Positions 16,427-57,114 of a stretch of 64,000 bases of DNA are shown here, piece by piece. Within the stretch, counting starts at the first letter, position 1, and every line of letters begins with the position of its first letter. The notes under the pieces are model-generated. The model was given only the letters and a program-made list of their open reading frames with translations. It was not told the origin of the DNA and did not search any database. Made by a program: the position numbers and the translations under genes. The stretch comes from a virus (lineage: Duplodnaviria; Heunggongvirae; Uroviricota; Caudoviricetes): the IMG/VR virus record IMGVR_UViG_3300030434_000006, positions 955 through 64,954 of that record. One strand, written 5' to 3'.

Positions 16427-16442
16427 CCAGTGGATAATTTCA
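16427..16442 (-). promoter_or_regulatory. TGAAATTATCCACTGG element (family copy d)
   Basis: 15/16 identical to the copies at 36835 and 57099; contains a DnaA-box-like TTATCCACT. Confidence 0.4.
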
Positions 16443-16504
16443 TATTAGAAATATTGAATTTATCCGCGCCGGGGATATAGTGTGCGCGCCACTGTAAAAC
16501 AGTG

Positions 16505-16722
16505 GTCGGGATTGGAACCCCGAACGAATGTACGAGGAGGCACTTAGTGCCTCCGGCGCTACCACGTCTGGAGTTTGCCAGATGTTTCAATGGTGGCGTT
16601 GGCGGGGCTACCTTCGGGTAGGCCGGTCTCCTCGTACGCCGGTAGTTCCAACCCTGTCAACGTCACCACCCGGAGATTGGAACCTCCCGTAGTGACGCTT
16701 CCTTTTGTACGAGGAGCACTCC
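16505..16722 (+). promoter_or_regulatory. repeat-rich leader with a W/R-rich small upstream ORF
   Basis: three copies (two direct, one inverted) of GATTGGAACC..GTACGAGGAG; the SD of the gene at 16723 lies inside the third copy and is complementary to the inverted copy CTCCTCGTAC; uORF at 16582..16692 begins MFQWWRWRGYLRV. Confidence 0.4.
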
Positions 16723-16980
16723 ATGCCTGATATCCCTTATACGCCGTCCCAGGCAGTGCTTAGGTTCGCCAATGCCATGCTTGCCATAAGCCAGACAGAC
16801 AGTAGCATCTGTCGCCGTGCCAAATGGGGTGATAAACCTATTCACGTATTTACGCAGGCCGACTCAGACAGCCAGATGCAATTTATATTCATGGGCGAGT
16901 CCGGCGCGTTATCAATTTATGATCCAACACCTGAAGATATTTTGTCAGCCGACTGGCAGGTTATTTCGCTTCTGCACTGA
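16723..16980 (+). CDS. small protein, possible DUF2829/Tad2-like fold
   Basis: 85 aa from ATG 16723 (SD GAGGAG); CRRAKWGDKPIHVF and DILSADWQVI resemble DUF2829 motifs KVARKGWNGKG and DLLAEDWEIV (from memory). Confidence 0.3.
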   Translation: MPDIPYTPSQAVLRFANAMLAISQTDSSICRRAKWGDKPIHVFTQADSDSQMQFIFMGESGALSIYDPTPEDILSADWQVISLLH

Positions 16981-17043
16981 GAAGGTTGGATTAGCCGCGC
17001 AGGATCAGCTCATGTGCGGCTATGAATAATATTCAGCCTGACT

Positions 17044-18741
17044 TTATTTGTCTGGTGAGGTTACAAAACGAGCAAAGGCTATGAGTTCTTCACGGGACCA
17101 GCTGGCCGGATCACTGCCGTCAGGAGCAGATTCATTCATCATGCCGCCGCCGCCCTCATCCTCCTGAGCGTCCGCTTTCTTCCTGCTCTTCTCAAACTCC
17201 GCTAGCATTTTGTCGAGCGTGCCGCCGTCCATCTTCAGCTGATCACTGAACAGGTAGCGCATGAATGTGTCGTTCTCCGCCAGCTTGTTGTTGGCCTGCA
17301 GCGCATCCATGACCTGCACCATCAGGGTAATGAAGTTGGCGCGGGCGTCCATTTCGCGGCTTTCTTCTTCCTGAATGGCGGTGTTCATCGAGTTGAACTG
17401 AACTACATAGGGCCGATCCTTAACCGGGTAAACCTTGCCGTATTTGAACGCCAGGTGAATATCGATCAGCCGGTAAATCATTTCCTGCGCGCCCTGTCGC
17501 AGCCACTGCGCCCGGAGTGCCGCCTGTATAGCCGTCTGAATCCAGCCGCCTTCACCCAGCCCGCCCGCCATCTGATCGGCCCACCCCAGCATAGTCGAGT
17601 CGATACCGAGCGCAGCGCACAGCTGGCGCAGGTGAAACATCACGTCCTCAATGCCGGTAATGTCCGCGGGTATCGACTGCGTGTCGATCGTAATGCCGTT
17701 TTTACCGTCTCCCATCACCGGGATCACATGGTTCATCACGGTTGGCATAGTGTTGCCGTTAACCGCTTTTTTCTGGAGTGCTTCGCCGTGGCGCTTGAGC
17801 GTCTGCGACACAGTGCGGGTGTAGTTCGCACCGACAACCGGATCGAGTGAGTTGGTTGTCAGGGCAATCAGGCGGTCAATTTTGGCGGCGTTGTAGCGCG
17901 TTGCCTTCAGCGCATTCAGCGCGCCGACCAGATTCAGGAAAGGCTCATAGGCATGCGCCAGGAAGCTAGTGCCGTAATTCTGCGTCTCCGCAACCTCCTT
18001 GTCCTCTTCCTCTGATAGCAGAGAGTAACCACGATTGCCGGACGTCACGGGCTGAACGTTGCGCGTCGGGGTCCAGTACGGATTTTTCATCGGGACCAGA
18101 GACCACGGCGTAGATAGTGTGCGGGTATGGGTGTCTGGCGAAAGCACATAATCCCCGCCGAAGCCCACCAGCTGATCGCCTTTGTAAAACTCCTGAATGA
18201 AGTAGGGCAACGAGTAATAGCTATTTTCCAGGCTGGTGATCCCTTTCCCTGAGCGGGCATAAGGGCGCACATAGGACACGCCGAAAATCGCCATTGTCAT
18301 AGCCAGCGACGGCAGGTGTCGGTTAATCATCGCGCCCAAATCATCCTGTAGCTCTTTGGCCCGCGCCGCGCCTTCTGCGTCGGACGGGTCAACCGGCACA
18401 ATAGAGAACGCCAGCCCGGTTTTTTTGTCCGGCGCGAGTGCGTGGCCAATGTGGATATTCAGAGCGGCTGAGCACGTTGGGCTATTCGCCATTTCTTCCA
18501 GAATCGCATAGCGCTGCAGCCTGTCCAGCGGCAGCTCCGCGCCCAGGAAAAGACTGTCGCCGGCGGAAGTCATTTCCCCGGCATTTCCCTCTTTGTAGGC
18601 CATTGCCGCCAGCCCGGAGCGCGAGACGACCACGTTCTGTCCGTTGGTCCATGCGAGGCTTTGCGGTGCTTCTGCTGCCGCGCCCCGGAATGCCTGCCTC
18701 AATGCGCTTAAAACAGACAGTGCCTTATTTTTAGTAGCCAA
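17044..18741 (-). CDS. portal protein candidate (or major head protein)
   Basis: 565 aa minus-strand structural gene between the 333-aa head gene and darB (P1 prt position); no motif certain. Confidence 0.35.
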   Translation of the reverse strand: MATKNKALSVLSALRQAFRGAAAEAPQSLAWTNGQNVVVSRSGLAAMAYKEGNAGEMTSAGDSLFLGAELPLDRLQRYAILEEMANSPTCSAALNIHIGHALAPDKKTGLAFSIVPVDPSDAEGAARAKELQDDLGAMINRHLPSLAMTMAIFGVSYVRPYARSGKGITSLENSYYSLPYFIQEFYKGDQLVGFGGDYVLSPDTHTRTLSTPWSLVPMKNPYWTPTRNVQPVTSGNRGYSLLSEEEDKEVAETQNYGTSFLAHAYEPFLNLVGALNALKATRYNAAKIDRLIALTTNSLDPVVGANYTRTVSQTLKRHGEALQKKAVNGNTMPTVMNHVIPVMGDGKNGITIDTQSIPADITGIEDVMFHLRQLCAALGIDSTMLGWADQMAGGLGEGGWIQTAIQAALRAQWLRQGAQEMIYRLIDIHLAFKYGKVYPVKDRPYVVQFNSMNTAIQEEESREMDARANFITLMVQVMDALQANNKLAENDTFMRYLFSDQLKMDGGTLDKMLAEFEKSRKKADAQEDEGGGGMMNESAPDGSDPASWSREELIAFARFVTSPDK

Positions 18742-18820
18742 AGTTATACGCCCTATTTAATAAACCTTTAGAATCAGATAAAGCATATTCGCTTTATGCA
18801 ATCTGAGGAAAAGTTACACA

Positions 18821-27485: not shown

Positions 27486-28004
27486 GTGCTTTTTGACGCG
27501 CAGTTTTTTACCGGATGCCCCACCTTTGAGCAGTATGCGCGCCGTAAAAAGACGCGCGACGGCTTGGGCCGTGGGCTTTCGGTTTTTGCCGACATGGCTA
27601 TGGACGTCGGCATTTTCAAAGTACCGAAGCAGGAGCTTATGTCGCGCAGCGGCATGAGTAACCGCCAGCTGAACTATTTCGGCGGCGTGAAGGGGATCAG
27701 TTACATCTTGAGAAAATCATTAACAGAAGGACGCGGACGCATGACTACGGCACAGATCGAAGGTTTGAGCAAAATTGGAATCGGTGCCATTACGTGCAGC
27801 TATGACCGCGCCTTGCTGAAGATGAAAGAGGATCCGGAATTGCTGATGCGCCGGGAAGCGTGGGAGGCGGGTTACTTTGTGTCGCTTGAGCAGGAGCATG
27901 AAGGCTGTGACGTGCTGATACTGACCCGACCGGACGGCGGCGTTGAGATACACGAACTGAGCATTAACGATATGCGCGTCAGCGACTGGGTAGTTATCAG
28001 CTGA
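27486..28004 (+). CDS. hypothetical protein
   Basis: 172 aa, GTG start; stop overlaps the next start (ATGA). Confidence 0.3.
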   Translation: MLFDAQFFTGCPTFEQYARRKKTRDGLGRGLSVFADMAMDVGIFKVPKQELMSRSGMSNRQLNYFGGVKGISYILRKSLTEGRGRMTTAQIEGLSKIGIGAITCSYDRALLKMKEDPELLMRREAWEAGYFVSLEQEHEGCDVLILTRPDGGVEIHELSINDMRVSDWVVIS

Positions 28005-28300
28005 TGGGCCAGGATAAGCCATACCACTACCATACTGTCTGCTACATGGGCGACAACGGGAAGATGAGATCCGGAATCGTCCAGCTGGCCACACGTCAGA
28101 TTTCCCGCCAGACGCTTGAAAACGTCCGGGCTACGCTTAGCTTTGACGAAAACGCAGTGCTGATCTCGCACAGCTACCTGGGCAGGATGACGCAGACAGA
28201 GTATGAGACCGGCGAGATCAAGGTGCCGTCTGTACTGCTGAACGTGCTGATGATTATCACTGTGGCCGCCATAGCCGTAACGGCGCTGAAACTGCTGTAA
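28004..28300 (+). CDS. tail-anchored small membrane protein
   Basis: 98 aa, C-terminal TM helix VLLNVLMIITVAAIAVTAL. Confidence 0.3.
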   Translation: MGQDKPYHYHTVCYMGDNGKMRSGIVQLATRQISRQTLENVRATLSFDENAVLISHSYLGRMTQTEYETGEIKVPSVLLNVLMIITVAAIAVTALKLL

Positions 28301-28363: not shown

Positions 28364-28384
28364 AATCTAAGAAAACTCTTAGAC
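28364..28384 (+). repeat. 21-bp element AATCTAAGAAAACTCTTAGAC (left copy of a perfect inverted repeat; internally palindromic)
   Basis: exact reverse complement found at 29754..29774. Confidence 0.85.
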
Positions 28385-28398
28385 AGTGGTTAATTTCG
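28383..28398 (+). promoter_or_regulatory. ACAGTGGTTAATTTCG element (family copy a)
   Basis: 14/16 identity to the copies at 36835 and 57099; abuts the left IR. Confidence 0.35.
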
Positions 28399-28441: not shown

Positions 28442-29731
28442 ATGACTACACTCGCTCCACTCCAGCAGCTGCAAAATCTCCCTGTATGCAACGTCGATGA
28501 CGATGTTCTGCACCAGGCGTTTGTCACCGCTTACAGCCAGCTTAATTCCATCCGTAAACGCCTGACGCTTGATGACCTGGAGCTGCGCCTCCTTGATAAC
28601 TGCACGAACGCTCTGGAGCAGATCCAGATCGATATCGGCATGCGGCTCAATCATGAGGCTGATACCTACAACCTGCTATTAGACACACTGGAGCAGGTAC
28701 AGCAGCAGCTGGGTGCGCAGTCCGCACTGGTCAACGAAGTAACGAAAATTCGTCTCGATGCCGAGAGCGCCATTGAAGAGGCCCGTGAGTCGGCTACTCA
28801 GCGAGTGCTGGAGGCGGACAACCGCGTAATCAATGCAGAGAATCAGCTTGAGGGTATCAGGTCTGCCCTGACCACCGCGCAGCTGGCGTTTACCTCTGTC
28901 TCACAGGAATATGAACAGTATCGCCGCAAGAATCCTGAGCGCCTGGCGCGAGACCTGAATGAGCGTGACAAAACCATTTCACAGCAGCGCGCCGATCGCA
29001 AAAAAGACAGCCTTAAGCGGCAGGAGCTACAGAGCAAACTCAATATCGCGGATAAGGTTGTCGGAGAAGAGCGCCGCCAGCGCGCCGCAACAGCCAATGA
29101 CCTGATGAAGACGACCGCTCTTTATAACCACCTGAAGGAACGCGTTGAATTTCATGATGGCCGGGAAGATGTGCAGCAGTTCCTTCTTCAGCTGCCGGAT
29201 GGCTCTGGCGACGTGGGCTGCTACATCTACAACTTCCACTTTGGCCTGAGCGTTTTCCACGGTGTCCGGGATGTGTCTATCGAGACGGCTGATTTCCACT
29301 TCCAGATCCGTACCGCGATGATGCTGGCAATGGACGTGGTGCCGGGGATATGGGGCAACCCGGTCTTCCGCCTGCTGCCTGAGCTTGCGCCGATGTGGGA
29401 CACGGCTATCAATGACGAGCTGCACACACGGATCATGAAGCGTCTGGCGCAGGATTTCCCGCGTCTTCACCAACGCATTCTTGACGGCAAGGCTGCGCCT
29501 GTTTCCGAGCTGGCCATACCGACACGCCTCCTTAACGTTCTGACAAAGGCCGGGTATGAGACGGTTGCAGATGCTGGTGGTGAGTTACCTGACGAGCTGG
29601 CAAAAGTGAGGGGGCTGAGTGAGGCCTCAGTCAATGATATTCGTGCTGCCGTGAACAGCTGGTGCATAAAGTGGGCGCAGGCGAACGGCGACATTGAGAA
29701 CATCAGAAACCCCAAAGTAAAACGCCGCTAA
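28442..29731 (+). CDS. coiled-coil protein with C-terminal RNAP alpha-CTD-like helix-hairpin-helix domain
   Basis: 429 aa; long Q/E/R-rich heptad region; C-terminal IPTRLLNVLTKAGYETVADAGGELPDELAKVRGLSEASVNDIRAAV parallels the RpoA CTD (RSANCLKAEAIHYIGDL...LGKKSLTEIKDVL). Confidence 0.4.
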   Translation: MTTLAPLQQLQNLPVCNVDDDVLHQAFVTAYSQLNSIRKRLTLDDLELRLLDNCTNALEQIQIDIGMRLNHEADTYNLLLDTLEQVQQQLGAQSALVNEVTKIRLDAESAIEEARESATQRVLEADNRVINAENQLEGIRSALTTAQLAFTSVSQEYEQYRRKNPERLARDLNERDKTISQQRADRKKDSLKRQELQSKLNIADKVVGEERRQRAATANDLMKTTALYNHLKERVEFHDGREDVQQFLLQLPDGSGDVGCYIYNFHFGLSVFHGVRDVSIETADFHFQIRTAMMLAMDVVPGIWGNPVFRLLPELAPMWDTAINDELHTRIMKRLAQDFPRLHQRILDGKAAPVSELAIPTRLLNVLTKAGYETVADAGGELPDELAKVRGLSEASVNDIRAAVNSWCIKWAQANGDIENIRNPKVKRR

Positions 29732-30160: not shown

Positions 30161-30224
30161 GCAGGTTTAGCTCAGTCGGTAGAGTGTTCCATTGTCGGCG
30201 GTTCAATTCCGTCAACCTGCACCA
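30161..30224 (+). pseudogene. truncated tRNA-like element (acceptor, D-arm and T-arm present; no anticodon arm)
   Basis: 7-bp acceptor GCAGGTT/AACCTGC, D-arm TAGCTCAGTCGGTAGAGT, T-arm GGCGG-TTCAATT-CCGTC, then ACCA; only 11 nt where the anticodon arm should be. Confidence 0.35.
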
Positions 30225-34376: not shown

Positions 34377-34728
34377 CAGCCTGATACATGATCTACCGGG
34401 TGAAGATGCTCACCCGGCACCGGCAGCAATCCACACATCGCATAAACTCTAAGTAAAAAATTCGGGTTTACAGTGATAATCCCTCTGAAAACTATATTTA
34501 TAGGCGGTCCAGTTATGCGGTATCGAGCGTACTGAAATGCACTGCCAGTACTGCGATCGTCATTCACTCATACAGCCACCAGCCAGTTTAGGCATGCGCC
34601 GTTCGCCCCCGGAATCGTCTCTAAAACGCACTTATACCTGCTAATAATGGCGATATTTAAACCATTACCACTTGTGCAGATTATACAATCCTTAGAATTG
34701 CTTGTAGTAAATTCAAGCGGAGCAGTAT

Positions 34729-35136
34729 ATGGAGCAAAAGGTGAGCAGTATAGAGGTGGCCGATCTGTTGATTCGCAGAAAGGACTACATGACCGTGGCC
34801 GAAGTCACTAAGCTGGTGGAAACGGAATACCCGCACCTGTTGGTGAACACCGGCATTATCTCGAATATCCTGCGCTCCTTTGTCCGTTCGCCGTTCGCAC
34901 AATGCCGGGTACATCCCGATGCCTATCCCCGGCAGTATCGCCTGGAGGCCATGAACGGCTACATCTTCAAGGTGCGGGGAAGAAAGGATCTTAATTACGA
35001 CTCGCTGTGTGTGGAAAGCGCCACAAAGCGTGTGCTGCAGAAGAAGGAAATGGAACAGCTGTCGGTATGCGCGCTGGCGCGGCAACTGATGGATATGTGC
35101 AGACGGGGAAGGATGGAAAATGCCCCGCTCATGTGA
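34729..35136 (+). CDS. hypothetical protein, possible small DNA-binding regulator
   Basis: 135 aa; same orientation as, and upstream of, the pacA-like gene. Confidence 0.25.
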   Translation: MEQKVSSIEVADLLIRRKDYMTVAEVTKLVETEYPHLLVNTGIISNILRSFVRSPFAQCRVHPDAYPRQYRLEAMNGYIFKVRGRKDLNYDSLCVESATKRVLQKKEMEQLSVCALARQLMDMCRRGRMENAPLM

Positions 35137-35151
35137 ACGGGGCAGAGCGGC

Positions 35152-35694
35152 TTAGCCTGAAACTCTGTGGCGTTGCAGCTTTAAGGCGCTTGATGTAACA
35201 CCTTTGGGTGCTTCTTCTACACGCTTGGATGAATTGTCATCCGGATTATGAGTAACGCTAACCGCCTCCGGCTGACTCTCGGCCTGTGCTGGTTGAGCAG
35301 CTTCGCTGGAAGGCTTCTCAGCCTGTACCGGTTGAGCCTTTTCAGCTGGTGACGCTCCAACGACAGCGGCTGCTGGTTCTGCCACTGGTGCCTGTACCGG
35401 CTGCATACCCGGCGTCGTTGGAGTGATTTCACCCAGCGTGACGCTGATTAGCGAAAGCAGACGCTGCAGCCGCTCACGCTTGGTCATTGTCATGAACGTA
35501 TCACCATACGTCTCTTCCATCAGCGCGAGGATTGGTGCAAGCCCCATCTGCTCCACTGCATAGCCCGAACGAATAACGTTTATCACAAAGGCGCGCTTTG
35601 CGGGATTCGTCTTCAGCTTGTTATAGTCTTCGAGCATAGAGCGGCTGAACAGCCCGCCTTCCTCCAGCCCGGTAAATTTAATCACCTGTGCCAT
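35152..35694 (-). CDS. parR: ParR-like partition adaptor
   Basis: 180 aa directly downstream of parM, separated by 2 nt; structured N-terminus, then a disordered P/A/Q-rich C-terminus. Confidence 0.45.
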   Translation of the reverse strand: MAQVIKFTGLEEGGLFSRSMLEDYNKLKTNPAKRAFVINVIRSGYAVEQMGLAPILALMEETYGDTFMTMTKRERLQRLLSLISVTLGEITPTTPGMQPVQAPVAEPAAAVVGASPAEKAQPVQAEKPSSEAAQPAQAESQPEAVSVTHNPDDNSSKRVEEAPKGVTSSALKLQRHRVSG

Positions 35695-35696
35695 AG

Positions 35697-36824
35697 TTAG
35701 CCCTTCTCGTTGGTCCGGCTACGAATATCGCTTACAGACGCCGCACTACTGATATCAGCCAGAATATCGGCCTCAGAGGCCTGCAGCGCCAGATAGACGC
35801 CACGCGCAATAGCCATTTCAGGGTTATTCGGCACAACAACAACATCATGCCAGCCATCGGTGTGATCGGTCAGTCCTGGCAGCTTGCCAGCGATATAGTT
35901 AGCGCCGCCACCAACAACCAGAACAACGTCAACATCGCGGGTATTACGGTGAAGCGCACGCACGTCCTGCCAGATTTTCTCTGCCAGCTCAGATGCGGCC
36001 TGGTTGATGACTTCACTGATATCAATACGCTTCGATTTAGCGCTTTCCAGACGGGAGCCGATATAGCCCTGACGAATGATGGCATCAACGCTATCAACGC
36101 TGAGATCGGATGCGCCGAACGATTTACCCAGCTTTTCTTCAAACTCTGGCAGCAGCGCATGTACACGCTCGATCATCTTCTGAACGCCGTGCTCATAGCT
36201 GGCCTTTTTCACAGGCATCAGGTCTTTATCAACCAGGGCGATATCACAGGTAAAGCGTCCCAGGTCTACTACCAGCGTCTGCTCAGCGTCAGCCAGCTCC
36301 GGATTATCAGCCTGTGCCGAAACGATGGCAGGAACGGCTTCAGGGAATACTTCGACGTGAATGATGTTAGCCGGTTCGCTACCGTCGCGGTAATTGGTGA
36401 CAGGCGTCTTCAGGCTGGCAACCTTCTCACGGATACGGGCTTCGTTAATCACACCCATAGCGCTGTAGAACTGATTCACCGGCAGCGTTTCACCAATGAT
36501 CACATCACGGCCGCCGAGGCCAGCACGGTGCAGTGCATCGGCAATCAGGACGCGGTGAGCGGGTGAGACCTGATAGTTAGGGTCGCAGGTGTCATACAGG
36601 TCATAGCCTTTCTTCATGACGGTGTAGGCGCGTTCTTTGCCGCTGGCATCCGTTGTCAGCCACGTTGACTGGGATTCAGCCGCGAAAGACTGCTGGTGGC
36701 CTTCCAGTATCAGTGAAGGGGTGACAGAGGTGATCCAGCGCCCTGTGCCATCTTCAGCATAAGTCAGCGCTACGTTGCCAGAGCCTGCGTCTACTGCCAC
36801 TAAAACAGCTTTATTCTTAGTCAT
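35697..36824 (-). CDS. parM: ParM/StbA actin-like plasmid segregation ATPase
   Basis: 375 aa; N-terminal VAVDAGSGNV phosphate-1 motif and actin-fold spacing (DLGRFTCD, VVGGGANY). Confidence 0.65.
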   Translation of the reverse strand: MTKNKAVLVAVDAGSGNVALTYAEDGTGRWITSVTPSLILEGHQQSFAAESQSTWLTTDASGKERAYTVMKKGYDLYDTCDPNYQVSPAHRVLIADALHRAGLGGRDVIIGETLPVNQFYSAMGVINEARIREKVASLKTPVTNYRDGSEPANIIHVEVFPEAVPAIVSAQADNPELADAEQTLVVDLGRFTCDIALVDKDLMPVKKASYEHGVQKMIERVHALLPEFEEKLGKSFGASDLSVDSVDAIIRQGYIGSRLESAKSKRIDISEVINQAASELAEKIWQDVRALHRNTRDVDVVLVVGGGANYIAGKLPGLTDHTDGWHDVVVVPNNPEMAIARGVYLALQASEADILADISSAASVSDIRSRTNEKG

Positions 36825-36834
36825 TTAATTTTAT

Positions 36835-36850
36835 CCAGTGGTTAATTTCA
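36835..36850 (-). promoter_or_regulatory. TGAAATTAACCACTGG element 10 nt upstream of the parM start (family copy b)
   Basis: identical to the 57099..57114 copy. Confidence 0.45.
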
Positions 36851-36931
36851 TACTACGAACGAGGAATCAAAGTACCACATATTCCGGTTTTGTCCATTAG
36901 TAAGGCACCAAAACGGCGCGTTAGCTGCGAT

Positions 36932-36953
36932 AGTGATCATTAATGTGATCACT
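36932..36953. promoter_or_regulatory. palindrome AGTGATCA-TTAATG-TGATCACT with two GATC sites
   Basis: perfect 8-bp arms; lies in the parM / pacA divergent intergenic region. Confidence 0.4.
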
Positions 36954-36956
36954 ACA

Positions 36957-36974
36957 AATTACAGACTCCATACC
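36957..36974 (+). promoter_or_regulatory. late-operon conserved element AATTACAGACTCCATACC (copy 4)
   Basis: ends 35 nt before the pacA-like ATG at 37010. Confidence 0.5.
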
Positions 36975-37009
36975 ATCCCGGTTTATTGGCCTCTTTTGAA
37001 CGATAAACC

Positions 37010-38284
37010 ATGTCCAAAGTTAACTGGGATGACCACAGAAAAGCCTTCATCGAGCAGAAGGCGCAGAACGGGATAACCGTCAAAGAGTACTGTGAGCACT
37101 ACGGTCTGCCGTTTAACACCGCACGCCGGGAGCTGAACGGCAAAGCGCTGGCCGCAATGCGTGATCTGGCTGGTGATCACAATCATGATCATTCGAGTGA
37201 TCACGCTTCTGATCATCAAAATGATCACACCAGACAAGAAGACCTGATCATCCGCCGAAACGGGCGCAAAGTCAGGCACAGCGCAGCTTTAGAGGGGGTA
37301 CTGGAACCACGCGCTGACGCAGCAGCGCAGCCAGGCGGGAAGAAAAAGCCCAATGCTTCACATGCCAAAAAGATCATAAATGCCAGTGATCAGGATTCCG
37401 GTCGCCCTAAGCACACCCCAAAGCCACGCGGGGAGGGAAAACCGTTTGAGGAAGGGCATGAAACCAAGCTGGTGGCCAACCGGCGCGGCTACCCACGGCC
37501 AGAGGATTATGAATCAGCATTAGAGGTGCTGGGCGAGGGCGTGGAAGCCAGCGCCATGACGGTGCTGTTTGACTCGCTGGCTCACATGGACCTTCTGAAG
37601 CGCACCACGGCGCGGGCGGTCGAACTGTTTGAGCTGGAAGCCAGTAACCTGAAGAACGGCGGCAAAAAGGATGATGACGAAGGCGGCGGCGGGCCACACC
37701 CAATCCTCAAGATGACCAAGCTGATGATCGAGGTCGGTTATCTGGTCAATGACCACGCTACGCGGGTGGCGGCAATCGCCAGCGGCACCGATAAGAACCG
37801 GCGCGACAATGAGAAGCATGCACTGACGCATAACGCCGGTGAGGTGATCAGCCGTGCCTACCAACTGCGCGAGGAAAAGGACTGGGATTTACTGGAGACG
37901 GCGGAGTACATCGAGCGGCACGGTATCAAACTGCCAGAGTCACTATCCAGACGCCTTGAGAACGAGCTCAAGAACGCCGAACCGCCAGTTGATGAAACCG
38001 GCGCGGTTACAGAGGACCAGCTGGACCAGGATGCACGTAAGTTCCGGGAACAGCAGGCCACCAGCGCGGCGTTTGTTGAGGCGCGCCGTGCGGAAGTGGC
38101 AGCGCTGGTGGATGGCAGCGGATTCGGTGACGTCCAAGCAGACGGAGAGAACCGCGCCGGCGAAACAGCGGGCGAGGGTAATCTCAGCGGCAACTTTGAC
38201 TACATGGCCACGGCGGAGCTGTACGGAGACGACGACGATATCCCGCCTGACATAGACGTCATACAGGGCGAGGACGACGCCTGA
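37010..38284 (+). CDS. terminase small subunit, PacA-like
   Basis: 424 aa directly upstream of, and overlapping, the large terminase; N-terminal DNA-binding-like segment; contains the TGATCA hexamer array. Confidence 0.55.
   Translation: MSKVNWDDHRKAFIEQKAQNGITVKEYCEHYGLPFNTARRELNGKALAAMRDLAGDHNHDHSSDHASDHQNDHTRQEDLIIRRNGRKVRHSAALEGVLEPRADAAAQPGGKKKPNASHAKKIINASDQDSGRPKHTPKPRGEGKPFEEGHETKLVANRRGYPRPEDYESALEVLGEGVEASAMTVLFDSLAHMDLLKRTTARAVELFELEASNLKNGGKKDDDEGGGGPHPILKMTKLMIEVGYLVNDHATRVAAIASGTDKNRRDNEKHALTHNAGEVISRAYQLREEKDWDLLETAEYIERHGIKLPESLSRRLENELKNAEPPVDETGAVTEDQLDQDARKFREQQATSAAFVEARRAEVAALVDGSGFGDVQADGENRAGETAGEGNLSGNFDYMATAELYGDDDDIPPDIDVIQGEDDA
37162..37250 (+). other. pac-like site: TGATC(A/T) hexamers at 12-bp periodicity inside pacA
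   Basis: hexamers at 37162, 37174, 37186, 37198, 37210 and 37222, plus 37245; together they encode GDHNHDHSSDHASDHQNDH. Confidence 0.55.
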
Positions 38285-39921: not shown

Positions 39922-41001
39922 TTATTTGCTCTGATTTTTCAGGTTACTTTCCAGCTCACGCAGCAGGCTATACATGTTGCGCATGTTCTTTCCGGCGCGT
40001 GGCTCTTCGCCACCGTAACGCTTGCGGATCTCCGGCATGGTCAGCTGTTCGGTATCGCCTGCAGCCACCTTCTTATCCAGCAGCGCCCAGTCGTATGCTT
40101 CCAGCTTTTCCAGCAGGTCACGGTTTTCGTCAATTTCAGCCTTAAACAGGCGTGCTTCCTGCGCGTCCTTTGCCTTAGCAATCTTCGCCTTCGCCCTGGT
40201 CTCAAACTGAGTGCGGCGCGTGTTCACCGTATACGCCACAGAAGAACGCTGAGCGGCCAGCTGCTTGCTGTAATCCACGTCTTCCATCGTGTACAGCTTG
40301 GCATTCGGCAGTACTGAGCATGCCACGGGAGAAATCGCGTCGTAAGAGGACGTGTACCCGCCGTTACTGTTAACGTTCAGCCTGATATCACGCTCTTTGT
40401 TCAGGTTTTCACCGTAGATAAGCATGCCGTGCGCGCCATAACGGAACGATTCGCCCTCATCTTTTTTGTCGTCGGTGTAGCGCGCAGTCACCTGAATGTC
40501 AGAGTAGTTGCTGGTGCGGGCGCGGTACATTGCGCCTGGCGCTGCGGCTTCAAACGCCTTCATTTCGTCTTCCAGCGACATGATGGCACCGGCAGCGAAC
40601 GGAACCTTACGCAGCTTGCCGATCTGCTTTTCGTAGCGCTTCAGGATATCTTCACGGGTGTGGTTCGCGGTCGCCGTAGCGCGGAAGCGGTTGATAGTGA
40701 CTTGCTTCGGCTCAACGATCAGGGTCGGCACCGGCAGGTAAAGGTTAGTCGTGATCGCGATAGAACGCGCCTGGCGTTTCTCTTCTGCCAGGTCGGCAAA
40801 GCTCTGCCAGTCGGCCAGCAGGTGTTCTGCGCGCTGAAAGGTCTTCTTATCAGTGATAAAGCCGATCGGGCGGCATTCCTCACCCATAGCGTTTTTATCA
40901 ATGAAAATCTGGTTGTCCGTGATGAGAGTCAGCCACTCTTTTTGTACCTGTAGAAAATGTTTATAGCGCTTCTCAAATTCTACATCGCTGAAGTTAGGCA
41001 T
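39922..41001 (-). CDS. hypothetical protein divergent from the lox/cre-like locus
   Basis: 359 aa; occupies the position that c1 holds relative to loxP-cre in P1, but shows no recognisable similarity. Confidence 0.3.
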   Translation of the reverse strand: MPNFSDVEFEKRYKHFLQVQKEWLTLITDNQIFIDKNAMGEECRPIGFITDKKTFQRAEHLLADWQSFADLAEEKRQARSIAITTNLYLPVPTLIVEPKQVTINRFRATATANHTREDILKRYEKQIGKLRKVPFAAGAIMSLEDEMKAFEAAAPGAMYRARTSNYSDIQVTARYTDDKKDEGESFRYGAHGMLIYGENLNKERDIRLNVNSNGGYTSSYDAISPVACSVLPNAKLYTMEDVDYSKQLAAQRSSVAYTVNTRRTQFETRAKAKIAKAKDAQEARLFKAEIDENRDLLEKLEAYDWALLDKKVAAGDTEQLTMPEIRKRYGGEEPRAGKNMRNMYSLLRELESNLKNQSK

Positions 41002-41386
41002 AATTGTATTCCAAAAAAATTAATGAGCGGTGCAAGTCTCTCTGGACTTAATGGAGGCGAATATAGACAGAATCAGTAGCCATGTAAAATTAACTCTCCT
41101 TAGAATTGCAATAATAAGAATAGTCTGCATTGTGCATCTGTCAGATATTTCCGCTGTACACGCTTATTAACAAACTGTGTGTTCAGGGTTGTGTAACAGG
41201 TATCAGGTGCAAAGCGCCTGGGCAAATGGTCCCGACTGATAATAGTTACCTTTAGCAATCAATTTGCATGCCAAATGATCATATATGAAGGTATGGTGCC
41301 GATCACGAACAATAACGTAACGAATTTGCAAATTTTTCGATTTGGCTACTCTTTCAGGCAGTCGCTTTACAAAAAGTGTCAAAATA

Positions 41387-41422
41387 GGAAACTTTAAATA
41401 ATAAGTCTTATATAAAGTTTCC
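41387..41422. other. lox-like recombination site candidate (14-8-14)
   Basis: GGAAACTTTAAATA-ATAAGTCT-TATATAAAGTTTCC; arms 13/14 complementary, 8-bp asymmetric spacer; 190 bp upstream of the Cre-like gene. Confidence 0.5.
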
Positions 41423-41611
41423 CCTGATTCATGTATGCTTGATCAGTGGTTGATGATCAAATGATCAGGTAAACGAAGCCGCTGGCAAAATGTATGCTTT
41501 CTGAGCGGTTTTGCATCAGGCGTCGCTACGTGAAATCTGACGTATCACACCCCTGCTGTTTTCGTAGATTTCGCGTAGCGTTGTCTCTCTGATTTGGGAT
41601 GAAATATATAA

Positions 41612-43561: not shown

Positions 43562-43634
43562 GTTCGTTCTGGTTCAGACGTTAACCACTGGATGTAGGTA
43601 TCCGAAATAAACCAATGGCAAGGATAACAGAACA

Positions 43635-44126
43635 TTGAAGCGCCTTTTACCAAAACTTAAAGTTTTTCGCGCCCGATATCCGGAAACGGCCTCAGCTGTG
43701 CTGATGCTGCTGAAGGATGAGCGTATCGCCACGCGCCGCCGCTTTACCCGCGCCCTGCCGGACACATCAACGCACGTCATCCGGGGAACGCTGCTGGACC
43801 TCCTGAAAAACGGACTGATCACGCGATCCATTGATAACGAGTACAGCCTGGCGGTGACGCCCGCTTATGCCGCCAGACTGACGCCCCTGAAAATGGGGAA
43901 GACCGAAGAGTACATTCTGATGCTGCTCGATCAGAACCGGTACATCACCGCCAGACAGGTACGCCAGGAGTTTGACGTAAGCCATTCCCTCTTTCTGCAG
44001 TCCGTGAAGAAACTGATTGCTCGCGGGCTGGTGGAGTACACAGACGTCCCTCTCTATGAGAACTCTGTCCGCAAACGCCGCCATTACACCTTTAAATCAC
44101 CGGAGTTAAGCCATGCCTCAAATTAA
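43635..44126 (+). CDS. putative winged-helix DNA-binding protein
   Basis: 163 aa; two MarR-like wHTH-looking segments (RGTLLDLLKNGLI and QSVKKLIARGLV). Confidence 0.3.
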   Translation: MKRLLPKLKVFRARYPETASAVLMLLKDERIATRRRFTRALPDTSTHVIRGTLLDLLKNGLITRSIDNEYSLAVTPAYAARLTPLKMGKTEEYILMLLDQNRYITARQVRQEFDVSHSLFLQSVKKLIARGLVEYTDVPLYENSVRKRRHYTFKSPELSHASN

Positions 44127-45754: not shown

Positions 45755-46132
45755 ATGGCCTTTCAGAGCCCCGCCCAGAACTACACTGAAACGCGCCTGA
45801 ACCTGGGCGATCTGGTATCTCTTTCCCCCTTCTCAACCTATCTGATGCGCAGCGAATCCGACTGCCCCGGCGCCGGGATTGTCAAAGGGTCCGTGCTGGC
45901 CATCGATCGCGCCCTGACGCCGGCGCACGGCCAGCTTATAGTGGCGGAGTTCGAAGGCGACCTGACACTGAGGCGGCTGTTGCTCAATCCGGTTCCCGCC
46001 CTCCAGGCACTGGACGCGGACGAGACAGTAACACTGCTCGATGTGAGCCAGGAGCTTCCTGTGTGGGGTGTGGTGGCTTATGCCTTAACCGATGTGGCCG
46101 GGATCGGCTTTAATGGGCCTGCAGGAGGTTAA
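45755..46132 (+). CDS. UmuD-prime-like protein (pre-processed form, P1 HumD-like)
   Basis: 125 aa; S24 peptidase C-terminal fold without the N-terminal cleavable arm; SD GGAG; directly upstream of umuC. Confidence 0.55.
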   Translation: MAFQSPAQNYTETRLNLGDLVSLSPFSTYLMRSESDCPGAGIVKGSVLAIDRALTPAHGQLIVAEFEGDLTLRRLLLNPVPALQALDADETVTLLDVSQELPVWGVVAYALTDVAGIGFNGPAGG

Positions 46133-46134
46133 GC

Positions 46135-47397
46135 ATGTTTGCGCTGGCAGATGCCAATAACTTCTATGCCTCCTGTGAAACCGTGTTCAGGCCCGATCTG
46201 CGCGGTAAACCGATTGTCGTCGTTTCGAACAACGACGGCTGCGTGATCGCACGTTCGGCGGAGGCAAAGCGCCTGGGTATCAAAATGGCGGCGCCGCTGT
46301 TTCTGAATGAGCGTTTTTTCAGGCAGAACGGCGTGCATGTGTTCAGTTCCAATTATGAGCTGTACGGCGATATGTCAGCCCGGATGATGGCCATACTGGG
46401 CGAGATGGCTGCTGGACAGGAGGTTTACTCTATCGACGAGTCATTTCTGGACGTCACCGGCATCAGCAATGTGATCCCGCTTGAGACGTTCGGACACCAG
46501 ATGCGTGAGCGTATCCGAAAGGAAACAGGGCTGATAATTGGCGTAGGGTTCGGACCAACGAAGACGCTGGCCAAGCTGGCTAATCATGCTGCGAAAAAAT
46601 GGACGCAGACAAAGGGCGTGGTCGATTTATCCAGCCGGACCCGGCAGCGAAAGCTGCTTCACCTGACCGACGTCGGCGATATCTGGGGTATCGGCCCGCG
46701 CATTACCAAGCGCATGCACCAGCTGGGCATCACCACTGCTCTGCAACTGGCGGACAGCAATATCAGCATGATCCGGAAAAACTTTGACGTCATCGTTGAG
46801 CGTACCACCCGCGAGCTCAATGGCGAGTCCTGCATCGCACTGGAAGACGCGCCGCCGCCAAAGCAGAACATCCTTAACTCGCGCTCATTTGGTGAGAAGA
46901 TCACGGACCTGGAGGACATGAAGCAGGCCGTCACACTCTACGCCACCCGTGCCGGAGAAAAGCTGAGAGAGCAGAACTCGCGTTGCCGACATATCAGCGT
47001 GTCGATCTCTACCGCTAGGCACGCAAACGAGCCTCAGTATTCGAATACCGCCTCATGCGTCTGCGACTACCCCACCAGCGACACTCGGGACATTATTGAG
47101 TCTGCGCTGCGCGGGCTGAGCACTATCTGGCGCGACGGCTACCGGTACGCAAAAGCAGGCGTCATGCTGGGGGATTTTTACCAGTCTGGCGTGGCGCAGT
47201 TTGACATGTTCAGTGAGCAGCAGCCGCGTGCAAATGCAGATGCTCTGATGGCCGCGCTGGACGCTATCAATCGCTCCGGGAGGGGAAAGGTATTCTTCGC
47301 GGGACAGGGAGAGCAAGACAGCGCATGGCAGATGAAGCGAGAAATGCTGTCGCCTCGATATACCACGCGGCTGAAAGATATACCACGCATAAAATAA
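46135..47397 (+). CDS. umuC: Y-family DNA polymerase subunit UmuC-like
   Basis: MFALADANNFYASCETVFRPDLRGKPIVVVSNNDGCVIARSAEAKRLGIKM is near-identical to the UmuC N-terminus. Confidence 0.85.
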   Translation: MFALADANNFYASCETVFRPDLRGKPIVVVSNNDGCVIARSAEAKRLGIKMAAPLFLNERFFRQNGVHVFSSNYELYGDMSARMMAILGEMAAGQEVYSIDESFLDVTGISNVIPLETFGHQMRERIRKETGLIIGVGFGPTKTLAKLANHAAKKWTQTKGVVDLSSRTRQRKLLHLTDVGDIWGIGPRITKRMHQLGITTALQLADSNISMIRKNFDVIVERTTRELNGESCIALEDAPPPKQNILNSRSFGEKITDLEDMKQAVTLYATRAGEKLREQNSRCRHISVSISTARHANEPQYSNTASCVCDYPTSDTRDIIESALRGLSTIWRDGYRYAKAGVMLGDFYQSGVAQFDMFSEQQPRANADALMAALDAINRSGRGKVFFAGQGEQDSAWQMKREMLSPRYTTRLKDIPRIK

Positions 47398-54597: not shown

Positions 54598-54928
54598 GAC
54601 TGTTCTCTTTTGTGAGTGGTGGCTGCGACGGCGCTATTTTGTGCTCCAACGTTATTTGTGAGGTAACTGCTGAATCCACAAAGCGGCGGCGGTCGATAAT
54701 ACGTTGCGCCTGACGTATGCGGTTTAGCTGCCGCAAATTGATTAGCTCGTCAGCCATAGCCTTAACGATGGCTGGTGGAGCATGGCGATCATTCAGGTCG
54801 TCATAAAGGCGACAAATGGCTGTGCTGTTATCCGGATGAACGTCATCGCTTTTACCAGCAATGGCTTTGATCACGTCGTCCGCGCTAGCGCTGACTTTCA
54901 GCAAAACCGACAGGTTTAGTTTGCTCAC
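54584..54928 (-). CDS. hypothetical protein
   Basis: 114 aa. Confidence 0.3.
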   Translation of the reverse strand: MSKLNLSVLLKVSASADDVIKAIAGKSDDVHPDNSTAICRLYDDLNDRHAPPAIVKAMADELINLRQLNRIRQAQRIIDRRRFVDSAVTSQITLEHKIAPSQPPLTKENSHGPA

Positions 54929-54932
54929 TTAA

Positions 54933-55130
54933 TCACCCTGCATTGACTGAGACTGAGATAGGCCCGTAGTGGATAGCAAGCCAGAGAATAAGAGAGCTAC
55001 AGCCAGCAGCTACAATGCTTAAATATGAGGTTCGTCCACTAAAAGAAATGGCTACCCAAAAGTTACCGACGCTCAAAACTAATAGAAATAGCCCGAAACA
55101 GAACAAAACGATCTCACCAAAAATTGCCAT
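54933..55130 (-). CDS. small two-TM membrane protein
   Basis: 65 aa, hydrophobic. Confidence 0.3.
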   Translation of the reverse strand: MAIFGEIVLFCFGLFLLVLSVGNFWVAISFSGRTSYLSIVAAGCSSLILWLAIHYGPISVSVNAG

Positions 55131-55799
55131 TCAATCCTCTACCACGCGCTTAAACTCAATCACCCATACCCACGGGTTTGCCTGCCAGCTCTCCTCTCCA
55201 TAGATAGACTTCCATAACGTCACGAAGGAACCGCGTGCGCTCAACTGGTGCTGAGTCCAGGCAGGCTGATAATGACGCCAGAAACCGCCCCGCAACTGCT
55301 CCACACCGTCCGCACGTGCATCGGCCTCACTGATGTTATTCAACCTCTCCACACGAACGCCGGTAATCTCCAGCGTTATGCGGGAAGCCCAGCGCGGCAT
55401 GTGGATGGATGGTCGCCAACGAAGTTGACCTTCCCACTGACGCCCAATGTCGCTTTCGCGATACCAAACAGCACCAGGTGTATATTCCGATGGCTCAACC
55501 CGGATTGAATGCGTCTCACGGACCCAAAGGCGATCACCTACTGCACCGAACGGGCAGGTGTAGCCTTCATCCTCGCTGGCCACACCAAATACCTGCTTCT
55601 TAGAAGACTGCAAGTAACCGTCTTTATCGACAACGCCTGGCGTATACCAGCGCGAGGTAAAGTCCGTTTCCAGCTCCATATTCATCGGAGAGAAATCTTC
55701 AGATGGTTGAACCTTCATGATCCGGCGCGTCTGCGTCTTCCTGCCGTCGAGAACTGCACGAACCATGTCGCCATTTAAGAAAATTGGACGTTCTTTCAT
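55131..55799 (-). CDS. ASCH/PUA-like domain protein
   Basis: N-terminal MVRAVLDGRKTQTRR matches the ASCH GRKTxTxR motif; 222 aa. Confidence 0.5.
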   Translation of the reverse strand: MKERPIFLNGDMVRAVLDGRKTQTRRIMKVQPSEDFSPMNMELETDFTSRWYTPGVVDKDGYLQSSKKQVFGVASEDEGYTCPFGAVGDRLWVRETHSIRVEPSEYTPGAVWYRESDIGRQWEGQLRWRPSIHMPRWASRITLEITGVRVERLNNISEADARADGVEQLRGGFWRHYQPAWTQHQLSARGSFVTLWKSIYGEESWQANPWVWVIEFKRVVED

Positions 55800-56275
55800 T
55801 GCTGCTCTCCGTCTTTGATGAAGGTAAACCAGTGCGTTAAGCCACGCTTGCCGCTGATGTGGCCAAACAGGGGTTTCTGGTCAGTCAGCGCCAGAATGTC
55901 CCGCGCCCGGATCTGCGTTTCATTCCATTTAAAAATCAGCAGGCCGTTCGGCCGCAGCACGCGGAAAGCCTCAGTAAAACCGGCGCGCAGATCATTGCGC
56001 CAGGTCCCGCGATTGAGCACTCCATACTTGAGCCGTTGCCACCCCTTTTCGCCAGCCCGCTCCAGGTGCGGCGGGTCAAAGGCAATCACGTAAAAAGAGT
56101 TATCCGGGAATGGCAAGGATCGGAAGTCGGCTATCACGTCCGGGCTAATGACAAGCTCCCGGTCGGGCAGCTGGTGGGTCTCTTCCCGGATATCGGAATA
56201 CAGCACGCGGGGATCGGCTTTATCGAACCACATCATTCGCGGGCCACAGCACATGTCTAATACGGCCTTATCCAT
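55796..56275 (-). CDS. small phage-type N6-adenine DNA methyltransferase
   Basis: motif I LDMCCGP and motif IV FDPPHL; internal ATG chosen (ORF extends to 56473; alternative start at 56323). Confidence 0.5.
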   Translation of the reverse strand: MDKAVLDMCCGPRMMWFDKADPRVLYSDIREETHQLPDRELVISPDVIADFRSLPFPDNSFYVIAFDPPHLERAGEKGWQRLKYGVLNRGTWRNDLRAGFTEAFRVLRPNGLLIFKWNETQIRARDILALTDQKPLFGHISGKRGLTHWFTFIKDGEQQ

Positions 56276-56912
56276 GCGTACGCGCTCCCGCACACTGCCA
56301 GTCAGCGCAGCCTTCAAAGACATACGGATTGAGTTGCCAGTGAATGCGCCCACAGTCCGGGCAGTTGAGGCGCGTCTTTCCTGTGCCTGGCTTGCGGCGG
56401 CGGGCGCGGCTGATGTGCGCCGGTACTCGCAGACCAGCACCCTGCACCATGCGGCGATGATCCAGCATGGCAATGGGGAACGTGCGGCGCTTTACTGCGT
56501 CAGCCGTGGCGAACGGTAGCCAAACCAGCTCAGCCGTATCGCCCGGTCTATCGAAAATGGTCGCTTGTGTGAAGTCGGTCGTCGGCAGGCCGCCGTTGCG
56601 GAGCCAGTACAGATCATTGCCATCCCAGCGCCCTTTCTGAAATGCAACGTACTTACTGCAATCAGGAGTAATGACCGACTCACCGGGTACGTGCTGGTGG
56701 TCAACGTGAACGACGGCTAGCGCATCCACGCTGTCTGCGCAAACGGGTTGATCGATAGTGCGGCCTGTATTCCAGCGGCTCTGTGCTTCTGCCAGGGTAT
56801 AGACGTGTGCTTTTTCGATATTGGTGTTGTAGCCGTGACCATCGTGGCACCAGAAAGAGGCATTACTGCCTACCGTATCTCTGGTACAGATCATGTAAAA
56901 GCGGTCGCTCAT
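56268..56912 (-). CDS. hypothetical protein with C-terminal zinc ribbon
   Basis: 214 aa; FWCHDGHGY and NCPDCGRIHW...CADWQCAG. Confidence 0.3.
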   Translation of the reverse strand: MSDRFYMICTRDTVGSNASFWCHDGHGYNTNIEKAHVYTLAEAQSRWNTGRTIDQPVCADSVDALAVVHVDHQHVPGESVITPDCSKYVAFQKGRWDGNDLYWLRNGGLPTTDFTQATIFDRPGDTAELVWLPFATADAVKRRTFPIAMLDHRRMVQGAGLRVPAHISRARRRKPGTGKTRLNCPDCGRIHWQLNPYVFEGCADWQCAGARTHG

Positions 56913-57088
56913 CAGGCATCACCACTTTCACGGCTAAAGGCAATTACTACATGGTTTACAGCCTCCACAACGGCAGCAAACTGCGCCTTATTGACGCTGG
57001 TACCGGGATGGAGTCTTGCTATTTCAGCGAGTAAAGCACTGATGAGTAACGGCTGGCTCAGATTGAGGGATTTAGCAGTGCCGGTCAT
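56912..57088 (-). CDS. small alpha-helical protein, first gene of the minus-strand accessory operon
   Basis: 58 aa from ATG 57088 (the ORF track used TTG at 57115). Confidence 0.3.
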   Translation of the reverse strand: MTGTAKSLNLSQPLLISALLAEIARLHPGTSVNKAQFAAVVEAVNHVVIAFSRESGDA

Positions 57089-57098
57089 GTGTAATATT

Positions 57099-57114
57099 CC
57101 AGTGGTTAATTTCA
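57099..57114 (-). promoter_or_regulatory. TGAAATTAACCACTGG element 10 nt upstream of the ATG at 57088 (family copy c)
   Basis: identical 16-mer to 36835..36850. Confidence 0.45.

Follow-up and report, generated by a model that had tools for sequence, protein, structure and literature searches.

Which factor reads a short asymmetric element that recurs upstream of scattered operons in a 64,000-nucleotide viral sequence (the window, positions 955 to 64,954 of IMG/VR record IMGVR_UViG_3300030434_000006), and with what effect? The genes present and their arrangement mark the window as a P1-like phage-plasmid of Pantoea, with prt, pro, repL, darB, pmgS, lpa, pacAB, c1, cre, ref and repA genes together with a C4 RNA (c4 RNAs were located by Rfam).

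The sequence TGAAATTAWCCACTGG has three exact matches, all on the minus strand (16427-16442, 36835-36850 and 57099-57114), against an expectation of 0 from 100 shuffles, and 11 matches with up to three mismatches are present in the window where 0.70 are expected. The recurrence described in the original prediction is thus borne out, and the 16-bp element is real and non-random. A position weight matrix (PWM) scan of the window leaves a clear gap between family members and background, with a strong class of five sites at 22-25 bits (16427, 28383, 36835, 57099 and 59344) and a weaker class at 43603 (17 bits), 62311 (16 bits) and 43576 (15 bits). The family has seven members in the window, every one intergenic, and eight in each complete relative. 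In each site an AT-rich arm (YGAAAT) is separated by three loosely specified bases from the core CCA-S-TGG; across 23 sites GAAAT and TGG are invariant, the central core base alternates between C and G, and the 16 bp account for the information content, a second half-site being absent and position 17 onward adding almost nothing. Searched by k-mer counts for a second dispersed motif, the window yields only RepA iterons, Chi and this element. The RepA iterons were considered as a source of the motif and rejected, their sequence (TTGCTGGTTTCATGGTA) being unrelated.

The two identical copies (TGAAATTAACCACTGG, minus strand) end exactly 10 nt before an ATG, as originally noted: that at 36835-36850 lies in the parM/pacA divergent spacer, before parM (36824), and that at 57099-57114 precedes the first gene (57088) of a 13-gene minus-strand operon. 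The latter occupies about +11 to +26 of a predicted promoter, TTAACA-N18-TAGAAT, and a promoter search at parM found no consensus match; here and below, all promoter assignments are consensus matches only. A ParR/parC-type centromere was also considered and rejected, with a single copy upstream of parM, no iteron array in 34600-37050 and the other copies scattered. The copy at 16427-16442 (TGAAATTATCCACTGG, minus strand) lies between pro (15294-16295, minus strand) and the c4 antisense-RNA unit (plus strand), 12 nt upstream of the predicted Pc4 -35 box and 66 nt before the a1 target, and is kept in the relatives pFC61912-B_D and pPSP-26e. The 14/16 copy at 28383-28398 (CGAAATTAACCACTGT, minus strand), correctly listed in the original prediction, is between pmgR-like (28004-28300) and pmgS-like (28442-29731) genes and falls within the spacer of a predicted promoter, TAGACA-N16-TATCAT. 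Adjacency to start codons, claimed for the element in general, is true of only two among the five strong copies; the remainder are elsewhere, the 16427 copy being 131 nt upstream of pro and the 28383 copy 43 nt upstream of pmgS on the opposite strand. Likewise, overlap with the ribosome-binding region applies to two of the copies listed earlier and to none of the others.

The fifth strong copy, at 59344-59359 (TGAAATCATCCACTGG, minus strand), lies in the intergenic region that separates umuD from a cra-like gene, within the spacer of the predicted plus-strand cra-like promoter and over the -35 box of the predicted umuD promoter, and has a weak inverted partner with the same CCAGTGG core. A weaker copy at 43603-43618 (CGAAATAAACCAATGG, plus strand) lies 16 nt before the TTG start of a 163-aa winged-helix gene (43635-44126), the first of a winged-helix/dut/isaA-like run, and its counterparts in relatives score higher, at 22-25 bits. 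A possible auxiliary partial copy at 43576-43591 (AGACGTTAACCACTGG, plus strand) has an intact core and no GAAAT arm, and its membership is uncertain. This pair and the 59344 copy had been overlooked. The sequence at 62311-62326 (CGTAATTGTCCACTGG, minus strand), which borders oriR on its outer side and precedes ref (62391) by 64 nt, matches Oref of P1 and the D6 site in position and orientation; its orthologues are TGAAATTGTCCACTGG in pFC61912-B_D and TGAAATTGTCCAGTGG in pPSP-26e, scoring 21-25 bits in relatives, and by sequence comparison it is a true but degraded family member. It was one of two weaker relatives originally placed in oriR; the other, at 62262-62277, belongs instead to a tandem pair of DnaA boxes (62262-62280, TTATCCACTTATCCACTGG) that is homologous to an annotated DnaA site in P1 oriR and, on that homology, is a genuine pair inherited with oriR.

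The sites are strongly conserved among relatives. The same eight places carry the motif in pFC61912-B_D, whose C1 protein is 93% identical to the 359-aa C1 homologue of the window, and in pPSP-26e (46%), and the motif is also present in relatives whose C1 is 62%, 50% (Enterobacter) and 42% identical, such that it is retained across C1 proteins spanning 42-99% identity. Orthologous sites are 98% identical at 11 informative positions and 61% identical in their flanks (Fisher p 5e-24), and in a PGAP-annotated relative all eight fall within the intergenic 13.7% of the plasmid (P about 1e-7). Among 80 viral loci around C1 homologues, three motif types partition exactly by C1 clade, a pattern that is confounded by whole-genome relatedness. 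Locus L212 (C1 40% identical) has none of the three motifs, and is too short for reliable de novo motif discovery. An exact-word scan of viral contigs returns at least 117 stretches, most of which are probably random matches, and about a dozen contigs in the size range of P1 (88-97 kb) are probably relatives.

The 359-aa protein (39922-41001, minus strand), encoded divergently from cre, was originally put forward as a candidate repressor, and several lines of evidence identify it as a C1 homologue. Its gene occupies the immC position, between pacB and a lox-like site followed by cre, as in P1, within the order pacA-pacB-c1-lox-like-cre; tblastn matches it to D6 C1 (30% identity, 3e-34) and to P1/P7 C1 (22-24%); and the family PF27008, Phage_P7_repressor_C1, matches homologues of the 359-aa ORF at 40-50% identity and is listed for all 17 of 17 database homologues. 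The second candidate, a 296-aa helix-turn-helix protein, is in fact a homologue of the RepL lytic-replication initiator. The C1 operators of P1 have been defined experimentally and are annotated in NC_005856. A PWM built from 14 P1 operators reaches at most 14.4 bits in the window, with 24 matches of at least 7 bits against 19.8 in shuffles; the window has no match above chance to the P1/P7 consensus, ATTGCTCTAATAAATTT, and any C1 operators in it must therefore belong to a different specificity class.

From these comparisons we think it likely that the element is the operator of the C1-family immunity repressor encoded at 39922-41001, a network of known type with a new specificity, and the analogy to the dispersed C1 operators of P1 that was originally drawn is supported both by the C1 homologue and by the sites at positions homologous to those of P1 and D6. 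In the plasmid prophage C1, probably as a monomer, would bind about eight dispersed asymmetric 16-bp sites lying within or just upstream of sigma-70 promoters, or between promoter and start codon. Occupancy of these sites would silence the c4/immI unit, pro-repL, pmgS and the 13-gene early operon, along with the winged-helix/dut operon, cra, umuDC and ref, and a gene adjoining the capsid gene, outside the window, would be a further target. The predicted promoters put the sites where repressors act, and we infer both that C1 is the binder and that it represses upon binding. Since the motif is unchanged at C1 identities of 42-50%, either a conserved recognition surface or a different, more conserved binder is required.

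Further observations run against the C1 reading. The copy in the parM ribosome-binding region would repress the partition genes in just the state where they are required, and no copy is found at the c1 or lpa promoters. The c1-cre spacer (41002-41611) and the region upstream of lpa (34377-34728) hold no copy of 8 bits or more, none of 13 bits or more is near c1 in 16 related loci, and the conserved islands upstream of c1 have no further occurrences. TTAGAAT, considered as an alternative C1 operator, occurs five times, about the composition-based estimate, and resembles ordinary -10 boxes; a 13-mer common to the lpa and c1 upstream regions, TCCTTAGAATTGC, is within chance for a 64-kb window.

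An alternative binder could be another phage-encoded DNA-binding protein, the best candidate being the 163-aa MarR-like protein itself, acting also on its own gene. Its winged-helix domain, the one or two copies that every relative has 16-43 nt upstream of this gene, and a palindromic CCA-S-TGG core that would suit a dimer all fit such a role. However, just one half of the site is conserved, unlike a symmetric dimer site; P1 has no homologue of the protein, yet has C1-bound operators at homologous positions in equal orientation; and in D6 the homologous operon is preceded by the operator type particular to D6, which is the pattern of an ordinary regulon member. We regard this alternative as unlikely. 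An improbable one is that the element is part of a promoter or the binding site of a positive factor. Many copies are followed within 0-2 nt by a TA-rich hexamer (TAAAAT, TATTAC, TATTAG or TATACC), and P1 late promoters join a 9-bp box to a -10 hexamer, but there is almost no information beyond the 16 bp, the P1 Lpa-type box (AAGTGACTT) is unrelated, and at parM and the early operon a transcript from such a -10 box would begin beyond the ATG, for which reason a late-promoter reading is rejected.

It is very improbable that the element acts in mRNA, as a translational operator or ribosome-binding determinant for an RNA-binding protein or small RNA. Three genes, in three genomes, have their start codon 8-10 nt beyond the end of the element with no Shine-Dalgarno sequence between, and six of the eight sites are in sense orientation; however, the copies next to pmgS and ref run antisense to those genes and are equally conserved, other copies lie within promoter spacers or upstream of -35 boxes, and the C/G flip at the center preserves the DNA palindrome while altering the RNA. 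The resident C4 RNA, rejected as a trans-acting partner, is complementary to its own a/b targets only, and not to the element. Control by host DnaA through boxes or box-like sites, which the original prediction raised, is hardly credible: the 16427 copy contains TTATCCACT, an 8/9 match to TTATCCACA, and the tandem oriR boxes end in CCACTGG and adjoin the 62311 copy, but the bases equivalent to T2-A3-T4 of a box (within the TTAT of TTATCCACA) are the least conserved positions across the 23 sites (0.8-1.1 bits; variants AA, GT, GA and AC), the conserved GAAAT arm and TGG lie outside any box, the C/G flip breaks C8, only the 16427-type copy is within one mismatch of TTWTNCACA, with genuine boxes limited to the separate tandem pair, and the motifs at homologous P1 and D6 positions have no DnaA-box likeness.

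The only significant PDB structure match to a model of C1 is Tus, over most of its length and with TM-scores of only 0.36-0.43; searches of PDB sequences and a BFVD fold search gave no match, and C1 and Tus share no protein sequence similarity. Tus is a monomer that reads an asymmetric site, and TerB autoregulates tus. The TerB site is separated by 10 nt from the tus ATG, an arrangement that the parM and early-operon copies share. At their best, P1, D6 and Pantoea operators align to TerA/TerB no better than shuffled operators do (p 0.3-0.9), and a 10-mer, AGTGGTTAAT, that the element's reverse complement has in common with sequence flanking TerB is treated as coincidence.

If C1 were a Tus-fold monomeric clamp on an asymmetric site, its operators would be polar. 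The AAATT arm points toward the promoter in eight promoter-overlapping P1 operators and in two between promoter and start codon, with three further P1 operators being exceptions or ambiguous. It does so at all eight gene-assigned Pantoea sites, although at 59344 this is true for the cra-like promoter and not for the predicted umuD promoter, which is on the opposite strand. The order is core-arm-gene for operators within a promoter or upstream of one, and arm-core-gene for those between promoter and start codon. We tentatively propose, as a reading with somewhat less than an even chance of being right, that C1 repressors of the P1 family are Tus-fold monomeric clamps on polar operators whose core has switched at least three times (P1, D6 and Pantoea) with positions and orientations kept, and that the Pantoea network extends to plasmid partition through parM, to SOS mutagenesis through umuDC and to the edge of the plasmid origin. 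Such a fold, if true, would explain a long-standing oddity of P1, i.e. a monomeric repressor with no recognizable helix-turn-helix and an asymmetric operator, and would pose the question of whether C1-operator complexes may act as polar barriers.

The element is a putative immunity operator for an entire clade of P1-like phage-plasmids in Pantoea and Enterobacter, and would provide a map, open to testing, of the regulon repressed in the prophage, as well as a simple immunity-typing marker. The system resembles P1/P7 in having a C1-family gene between pacB and lox/cre, and many dispersed, asymmetric operators of 16-17 bp located at or just downstream of the promoters of c4/immI, pmgR/S, ref and the pmgT-containing operon, with equal orientation and a common AAATT arm; P1 shares these site layouts too, for example with OpmgRb and Ossb at 14 nt and 19 nt, respectively, before a start codon. 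The Pantoea operator is unrelated to that of P1/P7 outside the arm, its core being a small palindrome. P1 has 17 or more operators, including those at c1/coi and lpa, whereas the Pantoea phage has about eight, none of them at those two loci, with additional sites at parM, umuDC/cra and the oriR edge, and its C1, which has a long helical extension at the C terminus, is 359 aa as compared to 283 aa in P1. D6 C1 is the closest outside the Pantoea group, at the 30% identity noted above, and D6, which is grouped here with the D6-like plasmid prophages of E. coli and Salmonella, carries a 12-copy dispersed asymmetric motif, AAATTAGTTTTCTAACAY, at homologous places in the same orientation, with one copy preceding the orthologue of the capsid-divergent gene by about 14 nt; D6 differs in having one copy about 10 nt before c1 and none at the parM/stbA gene. 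Through the common AAATT arm the three operator types align in place and orientation at c4, pmgR/S and ref, and those of D6 and the Pantoea phage are in the same register at the capsid-divergent gene, the orf117/winged-helix operon and the early operon. Across P1, D6 and the Pantoea phage, roughly 8-17 operator positions and orientations appear fixed with the recognition sequence replaced, and operator replacement at fixed positions would make these phage-plasmids a tractable case of repressor/operator co-evolution.

No close phage record was found for the window, which shares ~87% identity with Pantoea plasmids of 87–95 kb and 96–97% identity with a contig of Pantoea sp. GD03673. It contains homologues of the P1 genes bplA, S, darA/B, prt, pro, repL, pmgS, lpa, pacA/B, c1, cre, ref and repA in P1-/D6-like order. 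Of the two candidate repressors named in the original prediction, the 359-aa ORF divergent from cre (39922–41001, minus strand) is a homologue of the C1 repressor, with 30% identity to C1 of phage D6 (3e-34) and 22–24% to those of P1 and P7, and the "296-aa HTH protein" is a homologue of RepL. All database homologues of the 359-aa ORF carry PF27008, named Phage_P7_repressor_C1, and conservation among the C1 proteins covers the first 25 residues, at the N terminus, and several blocks in the centre.

Between c1 and cre there is a lox-like site of 13-8-13 architecture (GAAACTTTAAATA-ATAAGTCT-TATATAAAGTTTC; 41388–41421), and beyond it a strongly conserved block (41436–41480) in which GATC occurs three times. 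TGATCA-containing hexamers clustered in pacA (37150–37260, plus strand) resemble the Dam-methylated pac site of P1, and a conserved GTGATCA..TGATCAC pair upstream of pacA (36925–36955) may be part of a late promoter. The lpa and pacA genes, neighbours in P1 and D6, are separated in the window by an inserted parM/parR-like cassette (34729–36824, minus strand), with no centromere of the iteron type found beside it. Chi (GCTGGTGG) occurs 77 times in the window, 51 on the plus and 26 on the minus strand, versus ~2.5 expected from shuffles. A tRNA is called at 30161–30221 (plus strand; Rfam, 47 bits), and ARAGORN finds no tRNA in the window.

The 16-bp element TGAAATTAWCCACTGG is present in three exact copies in the window, all on the minus strand, at 16427, 36835 and 57099, where 100 dinucleotide-preserving shuffles give an expectation of 0; allowing up to three mismatches there are 11 matches, versus 0.70 expected. 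A position weight matrix (PWM) scan yields a strong tier of five sites (22–25 bits) at 16427, 28383 (reading CGAAATTAACCACTGT), 36835, 57099 and 59344, and a second tier at 43603, 62311 and 43576; a match at 38882 is within pacB and its conservation is that of coding sequence only. The copy at 59344, in the spacer separating umuD from a cra-like gene, and those at 43576 and 43603, upstream of a 163-aa winged-helix gene starting at 43635, were missed originally, and the "head gene" reported near 16427 is pro. Reading of the sequence bears out the placement proposed for two copies, one ending exactly 10 nt from the parM ATG (36824) and the other exactly 10 nt from the ATG of the first gene in the minus-strand operon (57088). 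The limits and asymmetry of the element also stand as first drawn: across 23 sites the 16 bp hold all of the information (YGAAAT, three loose positions, CCA, a C/G centre and TGG) with no conservation outside them, which makes it an asymmetric element whose core is a small palindrome. Comparison of different sites in the window gives 95% identity at the 11 informative positions and 32% in the flanks; they are therefore not duplicated promoter cassettes. An inverted repeat (CTAAGAgttttCTTAGA, 28366–28382) adjoins the pmgS copy, overlaps its predicted -35, and is kept in both of the relatives described below.

The element is found at the same eight places in the Pantoea plasmids pFC61912-B_D and pPSP-26e, whose C1 proteins are 93% and 46% identical to that of the window. 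These are upstream of pro/c4, upstream of pmgS, 8–10 nt before the parM ATG (with ParM only ~60% identical), upstream of the winged-helix gene, upstream of the early operon with 10 nt to the start codon, in the umuD/cra spacer, at the ref/oriR edge, and, outside the window, 8 nt before the ATG of a gene divergent from that for the capsid. At the 11 informative positions, orthologous sites show 98% identity, versus 61% in the flanks (p 5e-24). Loci with C1 proteins of 62%, 50% (Enterobacter sp. BRE11) and 42% identity likewise have the element. In the PGAP-annotated relative, intergenic DNA makes up 13.7% of the sequence and holds all eight sites (P ~1e-7), by which the element survives the refuting condition first set for it, a lack of enrichment at gene starts. 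The observation of a recurring element is confirmed and extended.

Promoters were assigned by consensus scans, a weak form of evidence, and the copies adopt more than one arrangement relative to them. The 57099 copy spans ~+11 to +26 of a predicted promoter (TTAACA-N18-TAGAAT), and the 28383 copy occupies the spacer of another (TAGACA-N16-TATCAT) upstream of pmgS. The 59344 copy lies in the spacer of the predicted promoter of the cra-like gene (TTGACC-N17-AAGAAT) and also over the -35 of a predicted umuD promoter, the -10 of which overlaps a canonical LexA box; the 16427 copy is 12 nt upstream of the -35 of a predicted promoter leading into c4 (TTGAAT-N16-TATAGT). No parM promoter was called by the scan. 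P1 shows two layouts of the same kind, in that Oref, Oc4, Odmt, OpmgRa, OpmgT and Olpa overlap the -35 or spacer, and OpmgRb and Ossb are downstream of the promoter, 14 nt and 19 nt from the start codon; operators that overlie the ribosome-binding region are thus not unusual for the C1 family. The LexA box (TACTGTATTTTTATACAGT, 59302–59320, minus strand) is between the 59344 copy and umuD, such that LexA and the phage repressor would both control umuDC (57595–59290). A further humD/umuC-like pair is present at 45755–47397 (plus strand).

A complete C4 antisense module (16509–16980, plus strand) is inserted inversely between prt and pro, with a1/b1 targets at ~16509 and ~16521, the C4 antisense RNA at 16586–16673 (Rfam) and a2/b2 targets at ~16675 and ~16707. 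In place of icd/ant it is predicted to control an 85-aa Tad2-like/DUF2829 ORF (16724–16980), whose Shine-Dalgarno is within the b2 target. D6 has two C4 RNA genes.

The P1 record annotates both C1 operators and promoters, and a PWM built from these operators yields no matches beyond chance level in the window. The Pantoea element is likewise absent from D6 (NC_050154.1), which has its own asymmetric motif AAATTAGTTTTCTAACAY in 12 copies (199, 8919, 9075, 10324, 11367, 21269, 54210, 64116, 75980, 76639, 80731 and 89948), one of them ~10 nt before c1, and this motif is presumably the D6 C1 operator. When the three operator types are aligned on their common AAATT arm they occupy homologous places in the same orientation. 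In P1, D6 and the Pantoea phage there is an operator 66–98 nt upstream of the a1 target of c4, upstream of pmgR/pmgS, and 61–98 nt upstream of ref; D6 and the Pantoea phage share operators upstream of the orf117/winged-helix/dut operon and of the early operon, and D6 and the Pantoea plasmids share one 8–14 nt before the capsid-divergent gene, whose products are 34% identical. Across 80 viral loci surrounding a C1 homologue, the type of motif tracks C1 clade with no exception, a correspondence confounded by overall relatedness: Pantoea-type C1 (46–99% identical) is found with the Pantoea motif only, D6-type C1 with the D6 motif, and P1-type C1 with P1 operators.

C1 is the most economical candidate for the protein binding the element, given this clade tracking, the positional register, and the experimental status of the P1 operators as C1 sites. 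The winged-helix protein is the only alternative candidate encoded in the window, but it has no homologue in P1. Control by DnaA, which the original prediction raised alongside a phage repressor, finds no support in the 23 sites, in which the would-be TTAT is the most variable part, the invariant GAAAT and TGG fall outside the DnaA box, and the centre alternates C/G; the repressor half of that interpretation stands. By sequence, the dispersed element is distinct from the tandem DnaA boxes of oriR, where the copy at 62262–62277 (TTATCCACTTATCCACTGGATAGATC) is homologous to the annotated tandem DnaA site of P1 (TTATCCACATTATCCACTGGATAGATC). The plasmid origin (60690–61140 and 62049–62280) is arranged like that of P1, with RepA iterons (TTGCTGGTTTCATGGTA) flanking repA on both sides, matching incA and incC, followed by an AT stretch rich in GATC and by tandem DnaA boxes.

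An AlphaFold2 model of C1 (17 sequences, mean pLDDT 84.5) has a single significant PDB match, the E. coli replication terminator protein Tus bound to its Ter DNA site (Foldseek E 1e-8, probability 1.00, ~310 aligned columns, TM 0.36–0.43). We found no sequence-level similarity between C1 and Tus, no solved structure of a C1 relative, and no paper linking the two in the literature searched, and the operators are no more like Ter than expected by chance. Tus is a monomer that acts on an asymmetric site as a polar barrier, and TerB is 10 nt before the tus start codon. In ten P1 cases, as at all eight gene-assigned Pantoea sites, the AAATT arm points toward the promoter under control, the exceptions or ambiguous cases in P1 being Omat, O26 and Ossb; at 59344 it faces the promoter of the cra-like gene, not the predicted umuD promoter on the opposite strand. 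This polarity fits a Tus-like fold, and we suggest, as a hypothesis rather than a result, that C1 may fold like Tus.

Some features fit less well. A repressor bound to the parM copy, which sits on the ribosome-binding region, would be expected to shut down partition in the plasmid state; the role of this copy may instead lie on the divergent pacA side, or its repression may be only partial. Neither the c1-cre spacer nor the region upstream of lpa has a copy, in the window or in 16 related loci, whereas both places are C1-controlled in P1, and D6 has a copy ~10 nt before c1. The motif is unchanged with C1 proteins just 42–50% identical, which implies a conserved recognition surface, and P1 and P7 provide a precedent for common C1 specificity. 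No earlier description of the Pantoea-type operator class was found in the literature searched. The sequence comparisons point to a system of known kind, a phage-repressor network of the P1 C1 type with a new specificity class.
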